Source: Escherichia coli (GTDB lineage: Bacteria; Pseudomonadota; Gammaproteobacteria; Enterobacterales; Enterobacteriaceae). Taken from it: 64,000 nucleotides of DNA. The stretch lies in the NCBI RefSeq assembly GCF_965641715.1, contig NZ_OZ282453.1, one strand, 5' to 3'. Within the stretch, counting starts at the first letter, position 1, and every line of letters begins with the position of its first letter. The notes beneath the pieces were generated by a model, which had not been told where the DNA came from, searched no databases, and saw nothing but the letters and a program-made list of their open reading frames with translations. This document shows, in pieces, positions 1,470-20,645 of the stretch. The translations under genes were made by a program, and so were the position numbers.

Positions 1470-3698
1470 TTAAATACTCCCCGCGTTATACCACGTCCCA
1501 TTAATGCAATACTGAATTGGCCTTGCCTGAGTTGTATCAATTAATTCATCACGGTTTCCGTTAACTGAACCCGTAACGACATAACCTGACCTGTCAGACC
1601 AGCCGGGACCATTCCATGTCTGAACAGATGACAGACCGCCAAGGCGAATACCTGTAATAAACCTTGAGTTACATTCTGCCTGCGTGTATGCACCAACATC
1701 TCCCGCAGAGGGTTTGCGGGTCGTGGTGTAAAACTCTGACCAGTTAGCCTCAAATCCATAACCATCACGCGCTGAACGATAAAAAATACCGCCGTTCCTG
1801 TAATTCACGCGGAACTGTACAGCAGGGCAGCTCCCCGTATTCATATTGAAGTGGAGGATTAATGTCGATGCACCGCTGATATCTGCATCATAAACACCGC
1901 TATTCCAGTTCCAGCCAACAGCTTTATCATTTGCAACCCTGCTTCCTGTTTGCCCTAAAGCAAATGCAGGCTGCTGGTTTTTCGTGTTGTAGTCTCTTCG
2001 CCAGCCAGGAGCATAAGCATCACCATGATTAATATAAGTGAATTGAGCGTTAGAGGTGCCGCCTCCGGTGGAAGTGCTTGGTGTTGTTACACGGATGGTC
2101 ATGGCACCTTTATTACCCATAACCTCAATAACGCAACCTGCAAGATGAATAGTTCCACAGCCAGTATCGGTAATAATTTTATTATTGCCGTATGACCATG
2201 AACATTTGCACATCCAGTATGGGTGATTGAATGCCCCTTGAGAATCCAGCCATTCAATCAATTGTGCCGTTGTCCAGTTCCCTGCCCCTGTACTAATAGC
2301 ACTGTGAAAAGCGCGACATGCACCAATATTTTTTGTGAAGGTATCTTTTCCTGGAATATCTGCGCCGTTCTGGTTTTTCTGTAATGCGCCAGAAGCCTGA
2401 TTTACCGTTTCTTGTAAACCGAGGTATTCGATAACGGCAGCAACGGTCGATTTCGCAAGAATATCCCGCCCGACTTTTGTCAGGGTTGCCAGGCTGGCGA
2501 CATCATTCCCCGTAAAATACGGAAACCTGTCTGCCGCAGTAGCAAGCCCGGCCAGCGCCGTCAGGGTGGCATCTTTCGGTTGCTTACCCGCAAGCGCGTT
2601 AGTCATGGTGGTCGCAAAATTCGGGTCGTTTCCCAGCGCCGCCGCTAACTCGTTCAGCGTATTCAGTGCGTCAGGTGACGAATCTACAAGGGCGGCAATC
2701 GCAGCCATAACGAAAGCCGTGCTTGCGATTTGGGTATTATTCGTTCCCTGTCGCGCAGTTGGCGTTGTTGGCGTTCCGGTCAGCGCAGGACTGTTTAAGG
2801 GCGCTTTCTTGTTCGTTTCATCCATTACCGCCTTAACCGCTTTCGATGTCGCGGCCAGTGTTTCAGACGTGCTGTTGGTGGCACTACTGAGCTGGACTAT
2901 CCCTTTTTGTGCCGTCGTGGCGTCCTGAGCGGTATATTTTGCGTTAGCAAGGTCATACGCGGCCTTTACTGCTTTCGGCGTTGCAGCCTGCGTTTCAGAC
3001 GTGCTGTTGGTGGCGCTACTGAGCTGAACTATCCCTTTTCGCGCAGTGGTAGCGTCCTGTGCGGTGTATTTGCCATTAGCCAGGTCATATGCCGCCTTAA
3101 CAGCCTTTGGCGTTGCCGCAAGCGTTTCAGACGTGCTGTTAGTGGCGCTGCTAAGTTGAACAAAGCCTTTTGCGGTCAGCGAGGCGTCCGGGTGACGTCG
3201 TGAGTGTTCATGCTCTTTCAGTTTGTCATCCACGTAATCCACTGTGGCCATTACCATGGTGTTATCCACGGTAAGCGCCACGGTGGCAGTGCTGGATACG
3301 GTCAGAATGGTGCGAAATGTTTGTGCACGTCCTGACCCTTCGGCAACGGTTGGCTTGTAACTTTCGGCAGTATTGCCTACTGCGATTAAATCGCCGTGCT
3401 CATCAAACACACCAATTTCCCGGATCCAGAATCCGCCCGTTTCTGGAGGAATAACCAGCTCCGCAATAATGCGGTTCTGATGTGTTGCGTCCAGGATGAC
3501 GCGATTAACAGTGTGTCGCCACACCTCATGCACCAGACGGGTCTGCTTACTGTCTGGTGTGGGCAACGTGCCGCCACCGTCGCCCACGGCCATATGAGTC
3601 AGGCGGACAGGCTTACCATCTGGCGCGGCTGCCTGAGCTAATTTTTTTGCACCCGTATCGGTGATAACGGTTTTAAATTTTCGTGTTGTGGTACTCAT
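1470..3698 (-). CDS. Tail fibre protein (P2 gpH-like)
   Basis: 742 aa; conserved fibre N-terminus, three internal 44-aa repeats ([10 protein letters not shown]...), C-terminus ...[11 protein letters not shown]; sits between gpI-like and assembly genes. Confidence 0.85.
2830..3215 (-). repeat. Three tandem 132-bp repeats (44-aa units) inside the tail fibre gene
   Basis: Motif gtttcagacgtgctgtt(g/a)gtggc recurs at 2860, 2992 and 3124, period 132 bp; protein repeat ...[13 protein letters not shown](L/Q)AATPKAVKA... Confidence 0.8.
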
Positions 3699-14617: not shown

Positions 14618-15141
14618 CGCGCTTCGCTTGTCTGCTGCTTCGCCGGGGCATAAAAAATTTATGCCCCGACTCTCCAGCTCCTGTATCAATCAGATAATTT
14701 CACGACGTCTTCCAGCTTATCGCCATCATCGACGGTCAGGCTCTTACGCAATCCCACCGCGTTGACTGCATGTTCTTGCCGCCTCAGTGCGATTTTGACG
14801 GCCTTATCTGTCACCCCATCAAATCAAAAGCCCTCACGCCTTTTTCACGCTCAGTGTGAGAAATACAGCCATTCTGTTGTGTCGCTGCGACATCGTTCAG
14901 GGAATGCTATTTACCCCCTGAAACGCGGGCTGTTCCCCCGTCACCTGCGCGCAGAAAAAACGCGTTTTTTTGTGCACGCACGGATCCTTGACGGATCCAG
15001 TCGCCACGCGGGCCGGAAGGGTAAAAAGTTGTTCAAAAAAATTGTGCAAATTTGTGCACTATTGTGCGGTGTATAAAATGAAAATATGGCGGTGTTATTA
15101 CTGCCCAACAAGCCGTTATACTTACGTTATGGGCGTGCATA
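14618..15141. other. Non-coding interval where cos and the packaging site are expected by P2 synteny; cos itself not identified
   Basis: Lies between portal stop and phd start; contains inverted repeat GGGGCATAAA/TTTATGCCCC (14645-14667), palindromes CTGCGCGCAG and A6CGCGT6 (14945-14970), two GGATCC sites 11 bp apart and TTGTGC repeats. Confidence 0.3.
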
Positions 15142-15498
15142 ATGGAAATGAATATGAAAACTGTAACTGATGATGAATTTCGTGAGAACCTGAGTGAAAT
15201 TCTGGATTACCTTTCTTCCGGTGGCAGTGTCGTTATCACGGCGCAGGGAGGGAAGGATGTTGTTCTTGCTGGTTCTGATCTTAGTCCTGAAATACGGGCT
15301 GTCCTTGGCAAAACCAAAAAACTGCGGGATCAAATAAACAAAATGAAGCAACCACTCTTAATAAATGCAGTGAGAGATCTGGAAAAACGTCATCCAGCTC
15401 TTGTCGCACAGAGAAAAAAAGGATTGTCTTTTGAAGATGCAATGAAGCGTACAAGAGAAAAACATGCGGATATCATTAAAAAGCTTGAGGATAACTGA
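15142..15498 (+). CDS. phd: Phd/YefM-family antitoxin (118 aa, C-terminally extended)
   Basis: N-terminus ...KTVTDDEFRENLSEILDYLSSGGSVVITAQGGKDVVLAGSD has the Phd/YefM pattern; stop overlaps the doc start (ATGA at 15498). Confidence 0.7.
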   Translation: MEMNMKTVTDDEFRENLSEILDYLSSGGSVVITAQGGKDVVLAGSDLSPEIRAVLGKTKKLRDQINKMKQPLLINAVRDLEKRHPALVAQRKKGLSFEDAMKRTREKHADIIKKLEDN

Positions 15499-15905
15499 TG
15501 GACATAGTGTTTTTGTCAAAAGAACAAGTAGAACGTATCCATGCTGAAACTTTACCCCAGAGCGGAAATGCCAATGACGGGCTACTTGAAGGTGCTTTAA
15601 ATCGCGTCAGGACACTACACTACTATGAAGGGGTTGATGATATTCATGCTCTGGCTGCTATGTATTTGATTGGTATAGCCAAGGCTCATGCCTTTCATGA
15701 TGGGAATAAACGCACAGCTTTTCAGGCTGCATCAATATTTTTAATGATGAACTCTTCCGAACTTTCAAACTCCCTGCTGCTGGTTAAATTAACGGTGTTT
15801 TCAGCAATGGGGATAGCTACCCTTGAGGAAGTTACCTTTGCTTTGAAATTGCTGTCTGATTATGGCAATGAATTAATCAGCGACTACGAAGAAGATTATA
15901 TTTAA
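15498..15905 (+). CDS. doc: Doc-family toxin (Fic fold)
   Basis: 135 aa; Fic/Doc signature HAFHDGNKRTA present; coupled to the upstream antitoxin. Confidence 0.85.
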   Translation: MDIVFLSKEQVERIHAETLPQSGNANDGLLEGALNRVRTLHYYEGVDDIHALAAMYLIGIAKAHAFHDGNKRTAFQAASIFLMMNSSELSNSLLLVKLTVFSAMGIATLEEVTFALKLLSDYGNELISDYEEDYI

Positions 15906-16071: not shown

Positions 16072-16407
16072 TCATTCATGCGTTTTTTCTTCATGGTCTG
16101 TCACTTCTCTCCTGATAACTTCATTGCACAAATCAACGCACTCATTGCAGATGTAAACAGACGGTCCGGCAATCACCTTTGTGACTTCGTACTGGGATTT
16201 ATTGCAGAAGCTGCAATAAATCGTCTCCTCACCTGAAGTCCATGTTTTGCTGGTTTCGCCAGACATCAGTTGTTTGAGGTCTTTTTCACGACGAAGAACT
16301 ATCTGGCCACATTCAGCTATTTTTTGGATGTTGACATTTTCTTCTTTCGCCAGCGCTTCCATCCGCTCAATCAGTCGCTGCGCTTTTTCTCTGTCAATGC
16401 GTTGCAT
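16072..16407 (-). CDS. Small protein with C-terminal ClpX-type C4 zinc-binding domain
   Basis: 111 aa; C-terminus [36 protein letters not shown] matches the ClpX N-domain (LYCSFCGKSQHEV...YICDECVDLCNDII); N-terminal half predicted helical/charged. Confidence 0.7.
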
Positions 16408-16470: not shown

Positions 16471-16782
16471 TTATTCGGGAAATAACGCCCGGATATTTCC
16501 GGCCATCTGACTGGTTATCTGTGCGGTTGATACTGGCTGTGACGCGGGGCGTTCTGTCCTGGTTTGTGTCACTGATAACGCTTCATCATCAGCCCATGCA
16601 GCCAGTCGGTAAGCCTCTGCCGGATTCATTTTCAGAAGTGCCAGCCCGGCCAGAAAAGCCACGCGTTGGCCGCTTTTGCGCGCTTCTGGTGTAAGGCTGT
16701 CCAGCCAGGCGCATGCTTCACCTTCGTTCTTGACGGCGGCGGGCTTCAGATAGAAACTTATCCGTCTGGTTGGAGTCGTCAT
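16471..16782 (-). CDS. parR: ParR-like DNA-binding partition adaptor; start at ATG 16782
   Basis: 103 aa from MTTPTRRISFYLKPAAV...; aligns with what I recall of R1 ParR (RRTIAFKLNPDV...LDS...AGLAL); ATG lies 5 nt after the parM stop, with AGGAG upstream. Confidence 0.55.
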   Translation of the reverse strand: MTTPTRRISFYLKPAAVKNEGEACAWLDSLTPEARKSGQRVAFLAGLALLKMNPAEAYRLAAWADDEALSVTQTRTERPASQPVSTAQITSQMAGNIRALFPE

Positions 16783-16786
16783 TGGT

Positions 16787-17746
16787 TTACTCCTTGTCCA
16801 TTGCGTACAGCCCATTAACCAGAGCAAACTGTGGCACCCCGTCCGCGATGAAAGTCGCATTAACTCCGCAGGCTTCGCGGATAGCGGGTGCCACAATCTC
16901 CGCCCCGCCACCGACAACCATCACCCGCCCGTAACCCGAAAAAACCGCCAGCGCGCGGATCACGCGTTGTTTCAGTGTTTCTTCCTTTTCACGAATAACC
17001 GCCATCAGGCTGGCGTAATGCGCGTCATTGTGGATGTGCTGGCGCAACCAGGCTTCATCATGGCGATGTTCGATAATGGTATTGGCGATGTGGTGACTGA
17101 TACGCATACCGTTAGTGGCCATCACCGACAGTACGGCATCGGCCATCAGGGAAACGCCTACGTGTGGATCGCAAAACACCTGGCTGATACCTGCCAGTTG
17201 CCCCTGAACCTTTGCCACATCCAGTGTGGTTCCGCCCAAATCCACAATCAGCAGGGATTCAAGCGGACTCATGTCAGCCAGTGCTTTAAAGCCAGCCGGA
17301 ATGGATTCAGGCATAACCCGTACGTTACGGATAGTGAATGTTTCGCCGTTCTGGTACTCCACCGGGCGCATAACGTTCGCTTTTTTGCGGCTGATGTTGG
17401 CCATGTCCGGCTGTGCGTTTGTGTCGAAATACTCGCTCAATGGCAGGGTGACAACCACATCCACCTCCTGTGGCGTGATGCCTGATTTGACCAGCGCGTG
17501 ATGAATGGCAATGACATTCACATCGCTGTACTGGTATTGCGTGTCGGTCGTCTGGACAAAGCGATCGCTGACCGGATCAAAACCATAGCGCACGCCATCA
17601 AGCATGTAGTTCGCGGGCTGCGAGCCACCGAACGGCGCAGACCATTCCGACTTGAAGCTGTTCGGGCTGATGGCGTTGCGGCGTTCGCCGTTCTCAGTCC
17701 ATGCCAGCTTGATGTTGGTGGAGCCGTCGTCGATACAAATTTTCAT
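16787..17746 (-). CDS. parM: ParM/StbA actin-like partition ATPase
   Basis: 319 aa; MKICIDDGSTNIKL..., ISPNSF, YSDVNV, KKAN, FTI.NV.VMPESIPAG, DLGGTTLD and VMV.GGGAE blocks parallel plasmid R1 ParM. Confidence 0.9.
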   Translation of the reverse strand: MKICIDDGSTNIKLAWTENGERRNAISPNSFKSEWSAPFGGSQPANYMLDGVRYGFDPVSDRFVQTTDTQYQYSDVNVIAIHHALVKSGITPQEVDVVVTLPLSEYFDTNAQPDMANISRKKANVMRPVEYQNGETFTIRNVRVMPESIPAGFKALADMSPLESLLIVDLGGTTLDVAKVQGQLAGISQVFCDPHVGVSLMADAVLSVMATNGMRISHHIANTIIEHRHDEAWLRQHIHNDAHYASLMAVIREKEETLKQRVIRALAVFSGYGRVMVVGGGAEIVAPAIREACGVNATFIADGVPQFALVNGLYAMDKE

Positions 17747-17783
17747 GTCGCTTTTCCTTATGTTGATTAATTAATCGTTTACA

Positions 17784-17890
17784 GGATTTTTAAATCCCGC
17801 TTTTGCCTGTTTTGTGCGCGCTTCATATATCGCGGCACGTTTTTTGCTCATTTATGGGATTTGTGAATCCCGTTTCTGTCTGTTTTTTGT
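17784..17890. repeat. Two imperfect 33-bp direct repeats, each with a GGGATT/AATCCC hairpin and T-run, upstream of parM and overlapping the 3' end of gene A
   Basis: GGATTTTTAAATCCCGCTTTTGCCTGTTTTGTG (17784-17816) and GGATTTGTGAATCCCGTTTCTGTCTGTTTTTTGT (17857-17890). Confidence 0.5.
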
Positions 17891-20645
17891 TTCCACTGGT
17901 CAGGCCACCCCGCAGCAGGTCTGCTTTGCGGCTGGCGCGTTCAGTGGTTTCACTGATTCTCTGTGCGTGCTCTGCGTCGCGGATGGCGCGCAGCATGTCA
18001 GAAAGCACGGTAACGGGTGTTTTCATGGTGTTCTGGTCCTGCTGAAGTGTGGATGCCAGGCGTGCGGCGGCTTCAGGGTCTGATGCCCCCAGCTGTGCCA
18101 GATAGCTGGCGACCGGGTTATGGCGGATCTCCGTGCTGCTTACGCCATGATTACGGCTCAGGCGCTGCCAGAGCTGCGTGATTCGGCTGTCCGGGCGGGT
18201 ATCCGGTTTGCGTACAATTTCAAATCCCTGCGGTGCAATGATGCTGCCGTCAACGTACAGACTGCCGCCCCGTAACAGGTGCTGCATCTGTTGTTCACCG
18301 ATATGCAGGCCGAGAGATTCAGCAGACTCCCGCCATTCTTTAGCGAGTAATTCGTGGTTATCAGGCAAAGGCCGTGGCTGTTTGCGGCTCTGTGTCCAGC
18401 TCTGCATTTCATCACTGCTGTTTTTTGCCTGTTTGTCACGAAGCGAACGCATCAGCGCCCGGCGTTCGTGCCGTTTCAGTGAGCGCATCCATTCGTTCAC
18501 GTCAACGCCGTCAGGAAGCTGCGGCCACGGTGCTGGCCGTTCTTTCGACTGTTCTGTCCCGCTGTTGCCTGTTTCCTGTACACGGGGACAGTTATTGCCA
18601 CGAGTCCAAGGGGCGGCAGGGCCGCCCTGAAGGTCAAAACCATTTTCGCGGGCGCTGTCTTCCGTTTCCGGTTTACGTCTTACCAGTTTCCAGTTATCCG
18701 GATGCGTGCACACACGGGAGGATTCCCCGATGAGTGGTGACCAGATCCCGTAAATCTGTACGCTCTGTTCGCCGTAATCATTCAGCTCATCTGCGAGGTC
18801 GTAGGCGGTGCGAATCAGGTAGTCTTTGCGTGGAACAAGTACGCCGCCCTGTTTTTCAATGTAGGTGGCAAAACACCCGGCATCGGCGGCAGCGAGTACC
18901 GCATCCATTGCGTCATCTTTCAGTCGTTGCGGGCCTTCCGGGTTGCGTGCCATCTGGCTGGCAAGGCGGCGCAGTTCACGCCACACCTGACGGGAGGGGA
19001 TGCCAAAGAACTGGAACTGGCGGACCCGATGAAGGCGCGCCCAGCCGATGGCGCGCTCCACACTCTCGGCCATTGATTTTCCGGTTTCGTGGTCAACGCG
19101 TGGCTTGCCCGTTTTCGGGTCGATGCCATCCACGGCGCGGCTGTCCAGGTTCTTTCCGATGTAGGTCGCGATATAGCTGGTTGGTGTGCCTTTTGAGCCG
19201 TCGACATACTCCGCCTTAAAGCGCGGAGTAATATCATTGCCCAGCTCGTGGCGGTCTTCCTGAATGGCAATATCGCGGGTGATGGCCACGATGCTGTCGA
19301 TTTCTTCCGGATGAGCAAAGACCATCATATGCCAGTGCACGGTGCCGTCATGGTGAGGCTCCACCGTGCGGATGCCATACCAGCGAAGACCGTCGCGGTT
19401 CAGTTTTTTGCGGACCGCCGCAAAAAACGTGTTAACCAGGTAATCGCTGGAGTCGCGCATGGTGGCCCCGTTCCATTTGGGATTCGGATGACCGTTCTCT
19501 GTTGTGGCGTGGTATTTTGACGGGCAGGTGACAGTCAGAAACACCGCTTTGTCGCCACGGGCTTCGGCCAGAAGTTCCAGCCCCTTCATGGTGGCCATCA
19601 TTTCTGCCTTACGGTGAACCGGGTTACTTACTCCCGCGTAATACACCGTCTCGAGATCAATCGTGAACCCGTCTTCATTTTCCAGCATGAAACTTTTCAG
19701 GAAATCGCGTGTTTTCTCGCGCTGTGCGCGAAACTCGCTTAACGCGTCCTGGCTCAGATAGGGCGATGTTTTTCTGGAAACCAGACAGGCGGCGCGGAGT
19801 TGTTCTTCTCTCCACTCGCAACGTAACAGCCACAGTTTGCGTTTCCACCATTCTGCACAGGTCAGGCGAAGGATTGCGCCCGGCAGCAGCTCCGTGTCCG
19901 GTTCGTTCCTCTGGTCTTTGTCTGTTGTCAGTGCGTCATAATGTGGAGGCATGGCGTGCAGGTGTAACGCCATGCGGGCCAGCATCTGATACGCCTTCAG
20001 CGTTACATCCATGGTCAGTTCGCCATCGGTCGCGCCAAAGCCATCGCAGAGTTTTTCGAAGGTGCTGCTGAACATCGCCGCCGTCATGGTGGCCAGTGTC
20101 TGTATCTGGTGTTTGTTGAGCTGCGGCAGGTAAAGCAAATCGTCCAGGCGTTCGCGTCCGGCAAGGGAGCGATAACCCTGTGTCAGCCAGCGGTGATCGG
20201 TGCGCTCCAGACGTTCGAATATTTTGCGCAGGTTTCCGCGCGCGTAGCGTTCAGCCTGCCAGCTCTTTTTGCCTTTCTGACGATCGGCTTCCTGTTTTTT
20301 GCGCAGGAAGGAGAGGTGGCGAATAAGCGGATCGCGCAGATAGGACGGCAGCAGGCGCAGCGAGGCCATGGCTTCATCCACCGCGCCGCGTGCCTGTTTT
20401 CTGGCATCTCCTGCCAGTGTGATGGTTTTGTCCTGTTTTTCCTGTGCGTCCAGGCTTTTATTAATCAGGTTGCCCAGCGGCGTTGCGGAGAACGCCGCAT
20501 CAGCCATTTCCTGGCGGTGCTCGTTCTCTACCCGGTAGGCATCCAGCCAGGAGGAAAGCGCGGATTCAGGAGCGGGGATCCCCGTTCCTTCACGCCCCAC
20601 TGCGTGGCGCGGTTGTTGCCAGTCCCTGATGTACTCTGCCGTCAT
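17823..20645 (-). CDS. Replication initiation protein (P2 gpA-like rolling-circle endonuclease)
   Basis: 940 aa; P2 A position; HUH-like motif ...HHDGTVHWHMMVF...; translationally coupled to the upstream 121-aa ORF. Confidence 0.65.
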   Translation of the reverse strand: MTAEYIRDWQQPRHAVGREGTGIPAPESALSSWLDAYRVENEHRQEMADAAFSATPLGNLINKSLDAQEKQDKTITLAGDARKQARGAVDEAMASLRLLPSYLRDPLIRHLSFLRKKQEADRQKGKKSWQAERYARGNLRKIFERLERTDHRWLTQGYRSLAGRERLDDLLYLPQLNKHQIQTLATMTAAMFSSTFEKLCDGFGATDGELTMDVTLKAYQMLARMALHLHAMPPHYDALTTDKDQRNEPDTELLPGAILRLTCAEWWKRKLWLLRCEWREEQLRAACLVSRKTSPYLSQDALSEFRAQREKTRDFLKSFMLENEDGFTIDLETVYYAGVSNPVHRKAEMMATMKGLELLAEARGDKAVFLTVTCPSKYHATTENGHPNPKWNGATMRDSSDYLVNTFFAAVRKKLNRDGLRWYGIRTVEPHHDGTVHWHMMVFAHPEEIDSIVAITRDIAIQEDRHELGNDITPRFKAEYVDGSKGTPTSYIATYIGKNLDSRAVDGIDPKTGKPRVDHETGKSMAESVERAIGWARLHRVRQFQFFGIPSRQVWRELRRLASQMARNPEGPQRLKDDAMDAVLAAADAGCFATYIEKQGGVLVPRKDYLIRTAYDLADELNDYGEQSVQIYGIWSPLIGESSRVCTHPDNWKLVRRKPETEDSARENGFDLQGGPAAPWTRGNNCPRVQETGNSGTEQSKERPAPWPQLPDGVDVNEWMRSLKRHERRALMRSLRDKQAKNSSDEMQSWTQSRKQPRPLPDNHELLAKEWRESAESLGLHIGEQQMQHLLRGGSLYVDGSIIAPQGFEIVRKPDTRPDSRITQLWQRLSRNHGVSSTEIRHNPVASYLAQLGASDPEAAARLASTLQQDQNTMKTPVTVLSDMLRAIRDAEHAQRISETTERASRKADLLRGGLTSGNKKQTETGFTNPINEQKTCRDI

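Follow-up and report, generated by a model that had tools for sequence, protein, structure and literature searches.

Two repeated blocks of DNA, each with an internal palindrome, lie where the replication gene A of a P2-family prophage of Escherichia coli gives way to the segregation genes parM and parR, and the locus raises the question of which of these neighbours, if any, the blocks serve. An initial annotation had offered three readings: parC-like centromere or operator sites, terminators insulating the cargo operon, or a recombination scar where cargo was inserted after A. We find it fairly likely that the two blocks are the parC-like cis site (centromere) of a type II ParM/ParR cassette residing in the A-to-Q hotspot of a P88-like prophage. 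Among the readings offered at the outset, centromere or operator is the one that the comparisons below favour, given the linkage of the blocks to parMR, their fixed position and spacing, and a putative ribbon-helix-helix (RHH) ParR as partner.

The locus and its neighbourhood

The stretch analysed (the window, 64,000 nt of contig NZ_OZ282453.1) carries a P88-like (Xuanwuvirus, P2-family) prophage with 97-98% identity to phage P88, in which gene A, parM and parR follow one another on the minus strand, as do all nearby genes (Table 1). The A reading frame ends in a stop codon at 17825-17823, leaving a gap of 76 nt before parM. On the plus strand beyond these genes lie phd/doc and, further off, the portal and terminase genes; transcription of portal, terminase and phd-doc is directed towards parR and parM. 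The A-to-Q region is a cargo hotspot of P2-like phages, about a quarter of which carry a putative plasmid partitioning system (Rousset et al. 2022, PMC9122126). Cargo of the parMR type in such phages is thus already reported; no mention of its centromere or of another cis site was found in the part of the literature that was checked.

Of 5,426 complete E. coli genomes, 1,286 (about a quarter) have the A-parM junction, and 1,530 of the 1,532 copies in these genomes are chromosomal. A circular record of 34,461 bp deposited as an E. coli plasmid (NZ_CP148288.1, L179) is a complete P88-like genome with int, cox, A, parM and parR; such a circle is compatible with an extrachromosomal state and does not prove it. 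A and parM are also found on large plasmids, one of 228 kb (NZ_MK439959.1) and one of 272 kb from Salmonella (NZ_CP110658.1).

Table 1. Features at the A-parM junction of the window, with coordinates counted from its first nucleotide.
Feature	Coordinates	Strand	Remarks
Replication endonuclease gene A	20645..17823	minus	Phage_GPA domain, E 6e-131
Junction zone	17887..17923	minus	Homology to A genes with other cargo ends near 17923; homology to parMR in other contexts starts near 17887-17890
Block 2, upstream 42-nt copy	17848..17889	minus	A-rich flank, palindrome, then AAATGA; first element of the parMR cassette
Upstream 20-bp palindrome	17854..17873		Plus-strand sequence ATGGGATTTGTGAATCCCGT; core starts at -125 from the parM ATG, within the last codons of A
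Stretch between palindromes	17801..17853	minus	Centre (about 17826-17838) is the most polymorphic part; no sigma-70 consensus promoter found
26-codon ORF (MSKKRAAIYEARTKQAKAGFKNPVND)	17771..17851	minus	Spans the spacer and block 1
Block 1, downstream 42-nt copy	17775..17816	minus	In the A-parM gap
Downstream 20-bp palindrome	17781..17800		Plus-strand sequence ACAGGATTTTTAAATCCCGC, degenerate relative to the consensus; core starts at -52 from the parM ATG
parM, actin-like segregation ATPase	17746..16787	minus	StbA_N, E 4e-82; ParM C-terminal domain, E 3.5e-68
parR-like adaptor, 103 aa	16782..16471	minus	Plasmid_stab_B, E 1.6e-24

Several further features of the neighbourhood were recorded. The phd/doc pair (Phd/YefM antitoxin and Doc/Fic toxin, 15142-15905, plus strand) occupies the same A-Q hotspot and is directed towards parR/parM. 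A ClpX C4-type zinc-finger protein of 111 aa is encoded directly 3' of parR (16072-16407, minus strand); elsewhere its gene stands outside the parMR unit, other genes coming after parR in other loci. PADLOC returned no defence-family match for ParM, ParR or the zinc-finger protein. In one relative (L095, 5602-5910) a second Plasmid_stab_B (ParR-like) gene lies farther along the hotspot, past SSB and two unknown genes. Gene A itself has at least three alternative C-terminal ends (17823-18700, minus strand, against L003, L005 and L072), and one lineage has a separate 155-aa CxxC-rich ORF between A and parMR. A search with the C-terminus of A gave mostly fragments, and through these the key comparison loci were reached. 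Just past the portal gene, a long hairpin (GGGGCATAAA/TTTATGCCCC) at 14623-14676 is probably a terminator near cos; its Rfam match to 'gyrA RNA' is sub-threshold (22 bits against a gathering score of 45).

Two 42-nt blocks carry a shared palindrome

A direct-repeat search recovered one family, 42 nt long, with 33 of 42 positions identical (79%). We scored the best 42-mer pair in dinucleotide-preserving shuffles of 17600-18100 or 17747-17900: none of the 500 shuffles reached 33 matches, the best attaining 27-28. The pair that the initial annotation had picked out is real, and its start-to-start spacing of 73 bp stands, with each copy 42 nt in length rather than the 33 nt first given.

The internal palindromes noticed in both copies were confirmed. 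Read on the plus strand, the upstream one is perfect (GGGATT-TGTG-AATCCC, 17856-17871) and the downstream one has a single mismatch (aGGATT-TTTA-AATCCC, 17783-17798); the family consensus is ACGGGATT-N4-AATCCCGT, relative to which the window's own copies are slightly degenerate. The placement of one copy inside the last codons of A also holds, block 2 overlapping about the last 21-22 codons of that gene.

The blocks belong to parMR and not to A

Where the same A gene is followed by other cargo, a Dam-type methylase and an AAA ATPase (loci L003 and L004), the palindrome is absent and identity to the window stops at about 17923. This A-Dam/ATPase junction occurs in 15 E. coli genomes, and of the other ~1,350 A matches all those among the matches listed end at that same point. 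Conversely, both blocks are present where parMR has a different upstream neighbour, be it a different A variant with a 155-aa zinc-ribbon-like ORF (L005, L072 and L133) or a 31-aa ORF (L124). Identity to the window in these other contexts starts ~20 nt before the upstream palindrome, and in a BLASTP comparison of the A tail with the 155-aa ORF only the final 21 residues align, which is the cassette-encoded part. By these alignments, the edge of the cassette is best placed ~20 nt upstream of the first palindrome, and the last ~21 codons of the annotated 'replication endonuclease' are best taken as cassette DNA rather than as A proper.

In all, parMR and its blocks were found together downstream of at least four different sequences. 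Across 670 kb from 102 loci, the motif (at most one mismatch) was found only at -52 and -125 from the parM start, and an exact scan for the palindrome pair in 2.9 million viral contigs gave 72 matches, every one of which (72/72) lies 36 nt upstream of a parM ATG. The GGGATT-N4-AATCCC palindrome was not found in four plasmid parM loci.

Repeats standing in prophages that lack parMR, which the initial annotation had named as the sign of a conserved A-gene terminator, did not turn up: A with other cargo (L003, L004) has neither copy. The same two loci speak against a scar left by cargo insertion after A, or a duplicated core-gene end, as no copy stays with A when the cargo differs and the mobile parMR cassette contains both copies (L005, L072, L124, L133). 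Since the blocks always travel with parM, they are most likely a centromere, and neither an A terminator nor an insertion scar. P2-family replication origins lie inside gene A, and the palindromes were also considered as a replication origin for A; this candidate was rejected because A genes without parMR lack them.

Two of the loci compared are unusual in other respects. At L005 (5836-8617), parM is broken up: two StbA_N pieces are separated by a 311-aa ORF, apparently through an insertion or duplication, and both blocks upstream are intact. L091 is a 3.7-kb contig, with parM 97% identical, that was binned in a Collinsella metagenome-assembled genome; the assignment is probably a binning error, because all other hosts are Enterobacterales.

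The region evolves as non-coding DNA

Both copies can be read as K-Q-x-x-x-G-F-x-N-P, and we therefore weighed the region as a duplicated A C-terminus or as a genuine 26-aa peptide. The 26-codon ORF is open in 153 of 167 loci, Hafnia included, and has no Shine-Dalgarno sequence. Polymorphic sites at its codon positions 1/2/3 number 6/10/8 (17851..17771), compared with 6/3/7 in the A tail and 11/5/65 in the first 300 nt of parM. With neither a Shine-Dalgarno sequence nor a third-position bias, the ORF is probably not a gene. The upstream palindrome is read in another frame by the Hafnia A gene (which ends in KQKRDS and a stop) and by the 155-aa ORF of L133, and in L106 A stops earlier, ~100 nt before parM. 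Both protein readings were rejected on this lack of frame conservation and of third-position bias, and the likeness of the two peptides (GFTNP and GFKNP) is a by-product of the DNA repeat, frames being unconserved and the polymorphism non-coding.

Cores, spacing and position across relatives

Among 94 loci, the commonest upstream allele is the perfect palindrome ACGGGATT-CACA-AATCCCGT (37/94) and the commonest downstream allele the perfect palindrome ACGGGATT-TCAG-AATCCCGT (36/94). The four central bases vary freely (CACA, CACG, CATG, TCAG, TAAA and TGAA), the spacing of the blocks is 73 in 89 of the 94 loci, their position relative to parM is constant throughout these loci, and all changes in the arms are one-sided. 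No double or compensatory arm changes were found in these loci, and the arm sequence is the same in both copies and both lineages.

The second of these lineages, assigned to Hafnia (L098, L099), has nucleotide identities to the window of 87% in parM, 74% in parR and 59% at the A 3' end. Both cores are still in place there, with their A-rich flanks, at the same 73-bp spacing and the same distance from parM, and the middle of the spacer has diverged; of the comparisons made, this one is the best independent test. Hafnia is the only truly diverged lineage, most loci being 96-98% identical, and much of the observed conservation may therefore be shared ancestry. The genome-contig search for relatives yielded only 3 loci, all 97-98% identical, and the phage collection search yielded only the P88 group and the P1-like D6.

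Two smaller observations concern the spacer and the spacing. The Hafnia spacer has a possible compensating pair of 1-nt indels (CGATATA moved by one), which is suggestive only, MAFFT having put no gaps there. At L027 (2936-2975) a single hybrid block is left by a 73-bp deletion through recombination of the two blocks; A there ends in ...KKQTKTGFKNPVTD, and the parM and parR ORFs are still of normal length.

The partner proteins

ParM matches the solved R1 ParM (1MWK) with E 7.5e-94. The ParR profile matches the solved pB171 ParR (2JD3) with E 0.002, and the alignment with R1 ParR extends through the strand and both helices. The AlphaFold2 model of the ParR monomer is of low confidence (pLDDT 56). 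The partner pair is assigned as an actin-like ParM and a small, putatively RHH-type ParR.

The N-terminus of ParR (RRISFYLKPAAV) and its tail (NIRALFPE) are fixed across variants down to ~50% overall identity, and variants down to 50% identity have the same N-terminal head together with the same site. Because head and palindromes are invariant together, covariation offers no test of specificity. Within E. coli the invariance of the head is in part shared ancestry, since parR starts with ~54 nt that hardly differ; in Hafnia the differences in the parR head are synonymous, as read by eye from the diff. A side result of this comparison is that parR is mosaic (16471-16782 against L100, L104 and L106): the E. 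coli variants are near-identical over the first ~54 nt, and beyond that point protein identity falls to ~50%, a pattern that suggests a recombination breakpoint within parR.

Comparison with plasmid parC sites

In the parC site of plasmid R1, 159 bp long, a 39-bp spacer with the promoter separates two groups of five direct iterons of 11 bp each (55 + 39 + 55); each iteron is bound by approximately one ParR dimer, and the DNA is strongly curved (PMC2241845). The phage site is like the parC of R1 and NR1 in lying directly upstream of parM, in consisting of two repeat blocks with a spacer, and in having an A-rich sense strand. The proteins are similar too: the phage ParM is 47% identical to ParMs of R1-group plasmids, and the phage ParR shares with R1 ParR the RR-x-I-x-F head and the LDS-P-ER-R-RAA-AGLAL helices. 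The phage arm with its flank (AATCCCGTAAA) resembles the iterons of R1 and Erwinia (AACCCAATAAA, AATTCCCATAT), a by-eye reading without statistics.

A further likeness lies in the phasing of A-tracts. The power of AA dinucleotides has its maximum at 10.5-10.75 bp in R1 parC and likewise in the E. coli consensus, the Hafnia region and each single block, and none of 1000 mononucleotide shuffles reached the observed 10.5-bp power for the whole consensus and Hafnia regions. The site is accordingly predicted to be curved through helically phased A-tracts, as reported for R1 parC.

The repeat architecture is where the two differ. The phage site lacks the 11-bp tandem periodicity of R1 parC (z 1.3 against 4.5); autocorrelation at lag 10-11 gives z ~1.3 for the window and 0.9 for Hafnia, whereas four plasmid parC regions score 4.0-5.0 at the lag of their iterons. 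With no tandem array of 10-11-bp iterons, the site does not have the defining repeat architecture of an R1-type parC. It has only two strong sites, one pair of inverted half-sites per block, in place of the ten iterons of R1, and its blocks recur at 73 bp rather than 94. Gene A of the phage takes its last codons from the upstream block, and the phage site is most polymorphic at the centre of the spacer, where R1 has its promoter. No promoter was detected by sigma-70 consensus scanning, with no site in 16500-18500 of the window or in 2700-3200 of the Hafnia locus L099, although a weak or non-consensus promoter could escape such a scan. An R1-style autoregulated promoter between the blocks is not supported.

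Plasmid parM homologues likewise have a pair of repeat blocks in front of parM, recurring at 61-94 bp. Erwinia p_unnamed_2, IncI-gamma/K1 and IncL/M (ParM ~52% identical) have two blocks like the phage, with periods of 83, 61 and 73 bp, and a T/A-TCCC core resembling the phage arm is present in the Erwinia iterons. Their blocks, unlike those of the phage, are arrays of 10-11-bp direct repeats (z 4-5) without the GGGATT-N4-AATCCC palindrome. Among prophages, AlpAC/alpS of the Corynebacterium prophage CGP3 likewise combines an actin-like protein, a DNA-binding adaptor and specific DNA sites, and has been proposed to move viral DNA (PMC5539076); its protein families, host and phage type are unrelated to those of the phage parMR.

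Alternative explanations

The palindromes might act as intrinsic terminators on the plus strand, antisense to A, parM and parR, stopping convergent phd-doc transcription or late P-to-Q read-through before it reaches the early operon. We regard this as unlikely, and such a role could coexist with that of a centromere. A T-rich run follows each hairpin on that strand, as the initial annotation had remarked, the RNA hairpin of copy 2 folds at -8.4 kcal/mol (z -2.2), and portal, terminase and phd-doc are all transcribed towards the site. A plus-strand scan for terminator-like patterns flags both copies in the Hafnia locus and, in the window, 17854-17873 only. Against this reading, copy 1 of the window has no palindrome hairpin in its minimum-energy plus-strand fold (z -0.3). 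The stems have little stability (-7 to -9.5 kcal/mol), the nearest plus-strand gene end is 1.9 kb away, and the T-runs are merely the complement of the phased A-tracts. Nor do the arms behave as a stem kept by pairing: their sequence is the same in both copies and lineages, and the changes seen in 94 loci are all one-sided, none offset by a change in the opposite arm. A role in termination would not explain why the blocks stand exactly 73 bp apart and at a constant distance from the parM ATG. On the sense (minus) strand the hairpins run into A-rich sequence with no U-run, so that they can neither end transcription of A nor shield parMR from it, contrary to the idea that they insulate the cargo operon. 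A conserved A-gene terminator was rejected as well, being on the wrong strand and absent where A carries other cargo.

The same stem-loops could be elements of the sense (minus-strand) early transcript between A and parM, whether processing or stabilising structures, a regulator of parM translation, or operators for a protein other than ParR. A polycistronic A-parM-parR RNA is likely, since no sense terminator and no promoter were detected between A and parM, the sense-strand hairpins fold at -7.1 and -9.5 kcal/mol, and the downstream one ends 36 nt before the parM ATG. Selection on RNA pairing is nonetheless hard to see, as the 94 loci hold no compensatory substitution and a common variant of copy 2 (GGGACT...AATCCC, 39/94 loci) puts a C-A mismatch into the sense RNA; helical spacing and A-tract phasing are properties of DNA and not of RNA, and no Rfam family matches at the repeats. 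G-U wobble as an indicator of the RNA strand was mixed, with the variants of copy 2 favouring the plus strand and those of copy 1 the minus strand. We consider such RNA elements very unlikely. It is highly improbable, too, that the repeat is a functionless duplication, whether left over from cargo shuffling in the A-Q hotspot or copied from the 3' end of an upstream gene. The upstream block does coincide with the left edge of the cassette, recombination between copies does happen (the single-copy L027), both copies are readable in the same codon register, and recombination in P2 hotspots is known to be intense and to leave remnants (bioRxiv 10.64898/2026.02.27.708500). Yet both copies lie within the cassette in every upstream context and neither occurs in A with other cargo, the codon-position statistics are non-coding for both readings, and Hafnia keeps cores, spacing and parM distance while the spacer and the A 3' end have diverged. 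A decaying relic, moreover, would not preserve the perfect 8+8 palindromes seen in the commonest alleles.

A proposed mechanism

How a centromere of this form might work can be sketched from the family of its putative partner. RHH dimers bind adjacent major grooves, and a dimer of dimers can occupy a site made of two inverted half-sites spaced by roughly one turn of the helix; operators available for comparison include those of Arc, Mnt, CopG and MetJ, the heptads of omega protein and the 20-bp repeats of pSK41 ParR, all from repressors or other partition families. The half-site centres of the phage palindromes are 10 bp apart, a distance at which a dimer of dimers would fit each palindrome, and we infer that ParR dimers would read the GGGATT/AATCCC half-sites. 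The separation of the palindromes by 73 bp (~7 helical turns) and the flanking A-tracts phased at ~10.5 bp would set both ParR complexes on the same side of bent DNA. The compact partition complex so formed may then cap growing ParM filaments and push sister phage circles apart; binding, stoichiometry, shape of the complex and segregation are all inferred here.

The overlap of block 2 with gene A would be incidental in this scheme, A simply reading on into the cassette until it meets a stop codon. Transcription of parMR may occur by read-through from A, which would limit its expression to derepressed phage. A more speculative extension, which we consider unlikely, is that P88-like phages possess a minimal two-palindrome centromere and that ParMR acts on the excised, A-replicated circle, which would make them facultative phage-plasmids or provide active positioning of replicating genomes. 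On that reading, with A translated through the upstream site and parMR presumably having no promoter of its own, occupancy of the centromere would be coupled to early-operon activity.

Implications

The description that fits the element best is that of a variant centromere in a known type of system, with an unusual layout in which two palindromes and phased A-tracts stand against the ten 11-bp iterons of R1. It provides a handle for ParR footprinting, for stabilisation assays and for labelling phage DNA in vivo. If ParR binds, an R1-family ParR would be able to use two palindromic sites in place of an iteron array, and the site touches on the question of what role a plasmid segregation machine may have in a phage that integrates.
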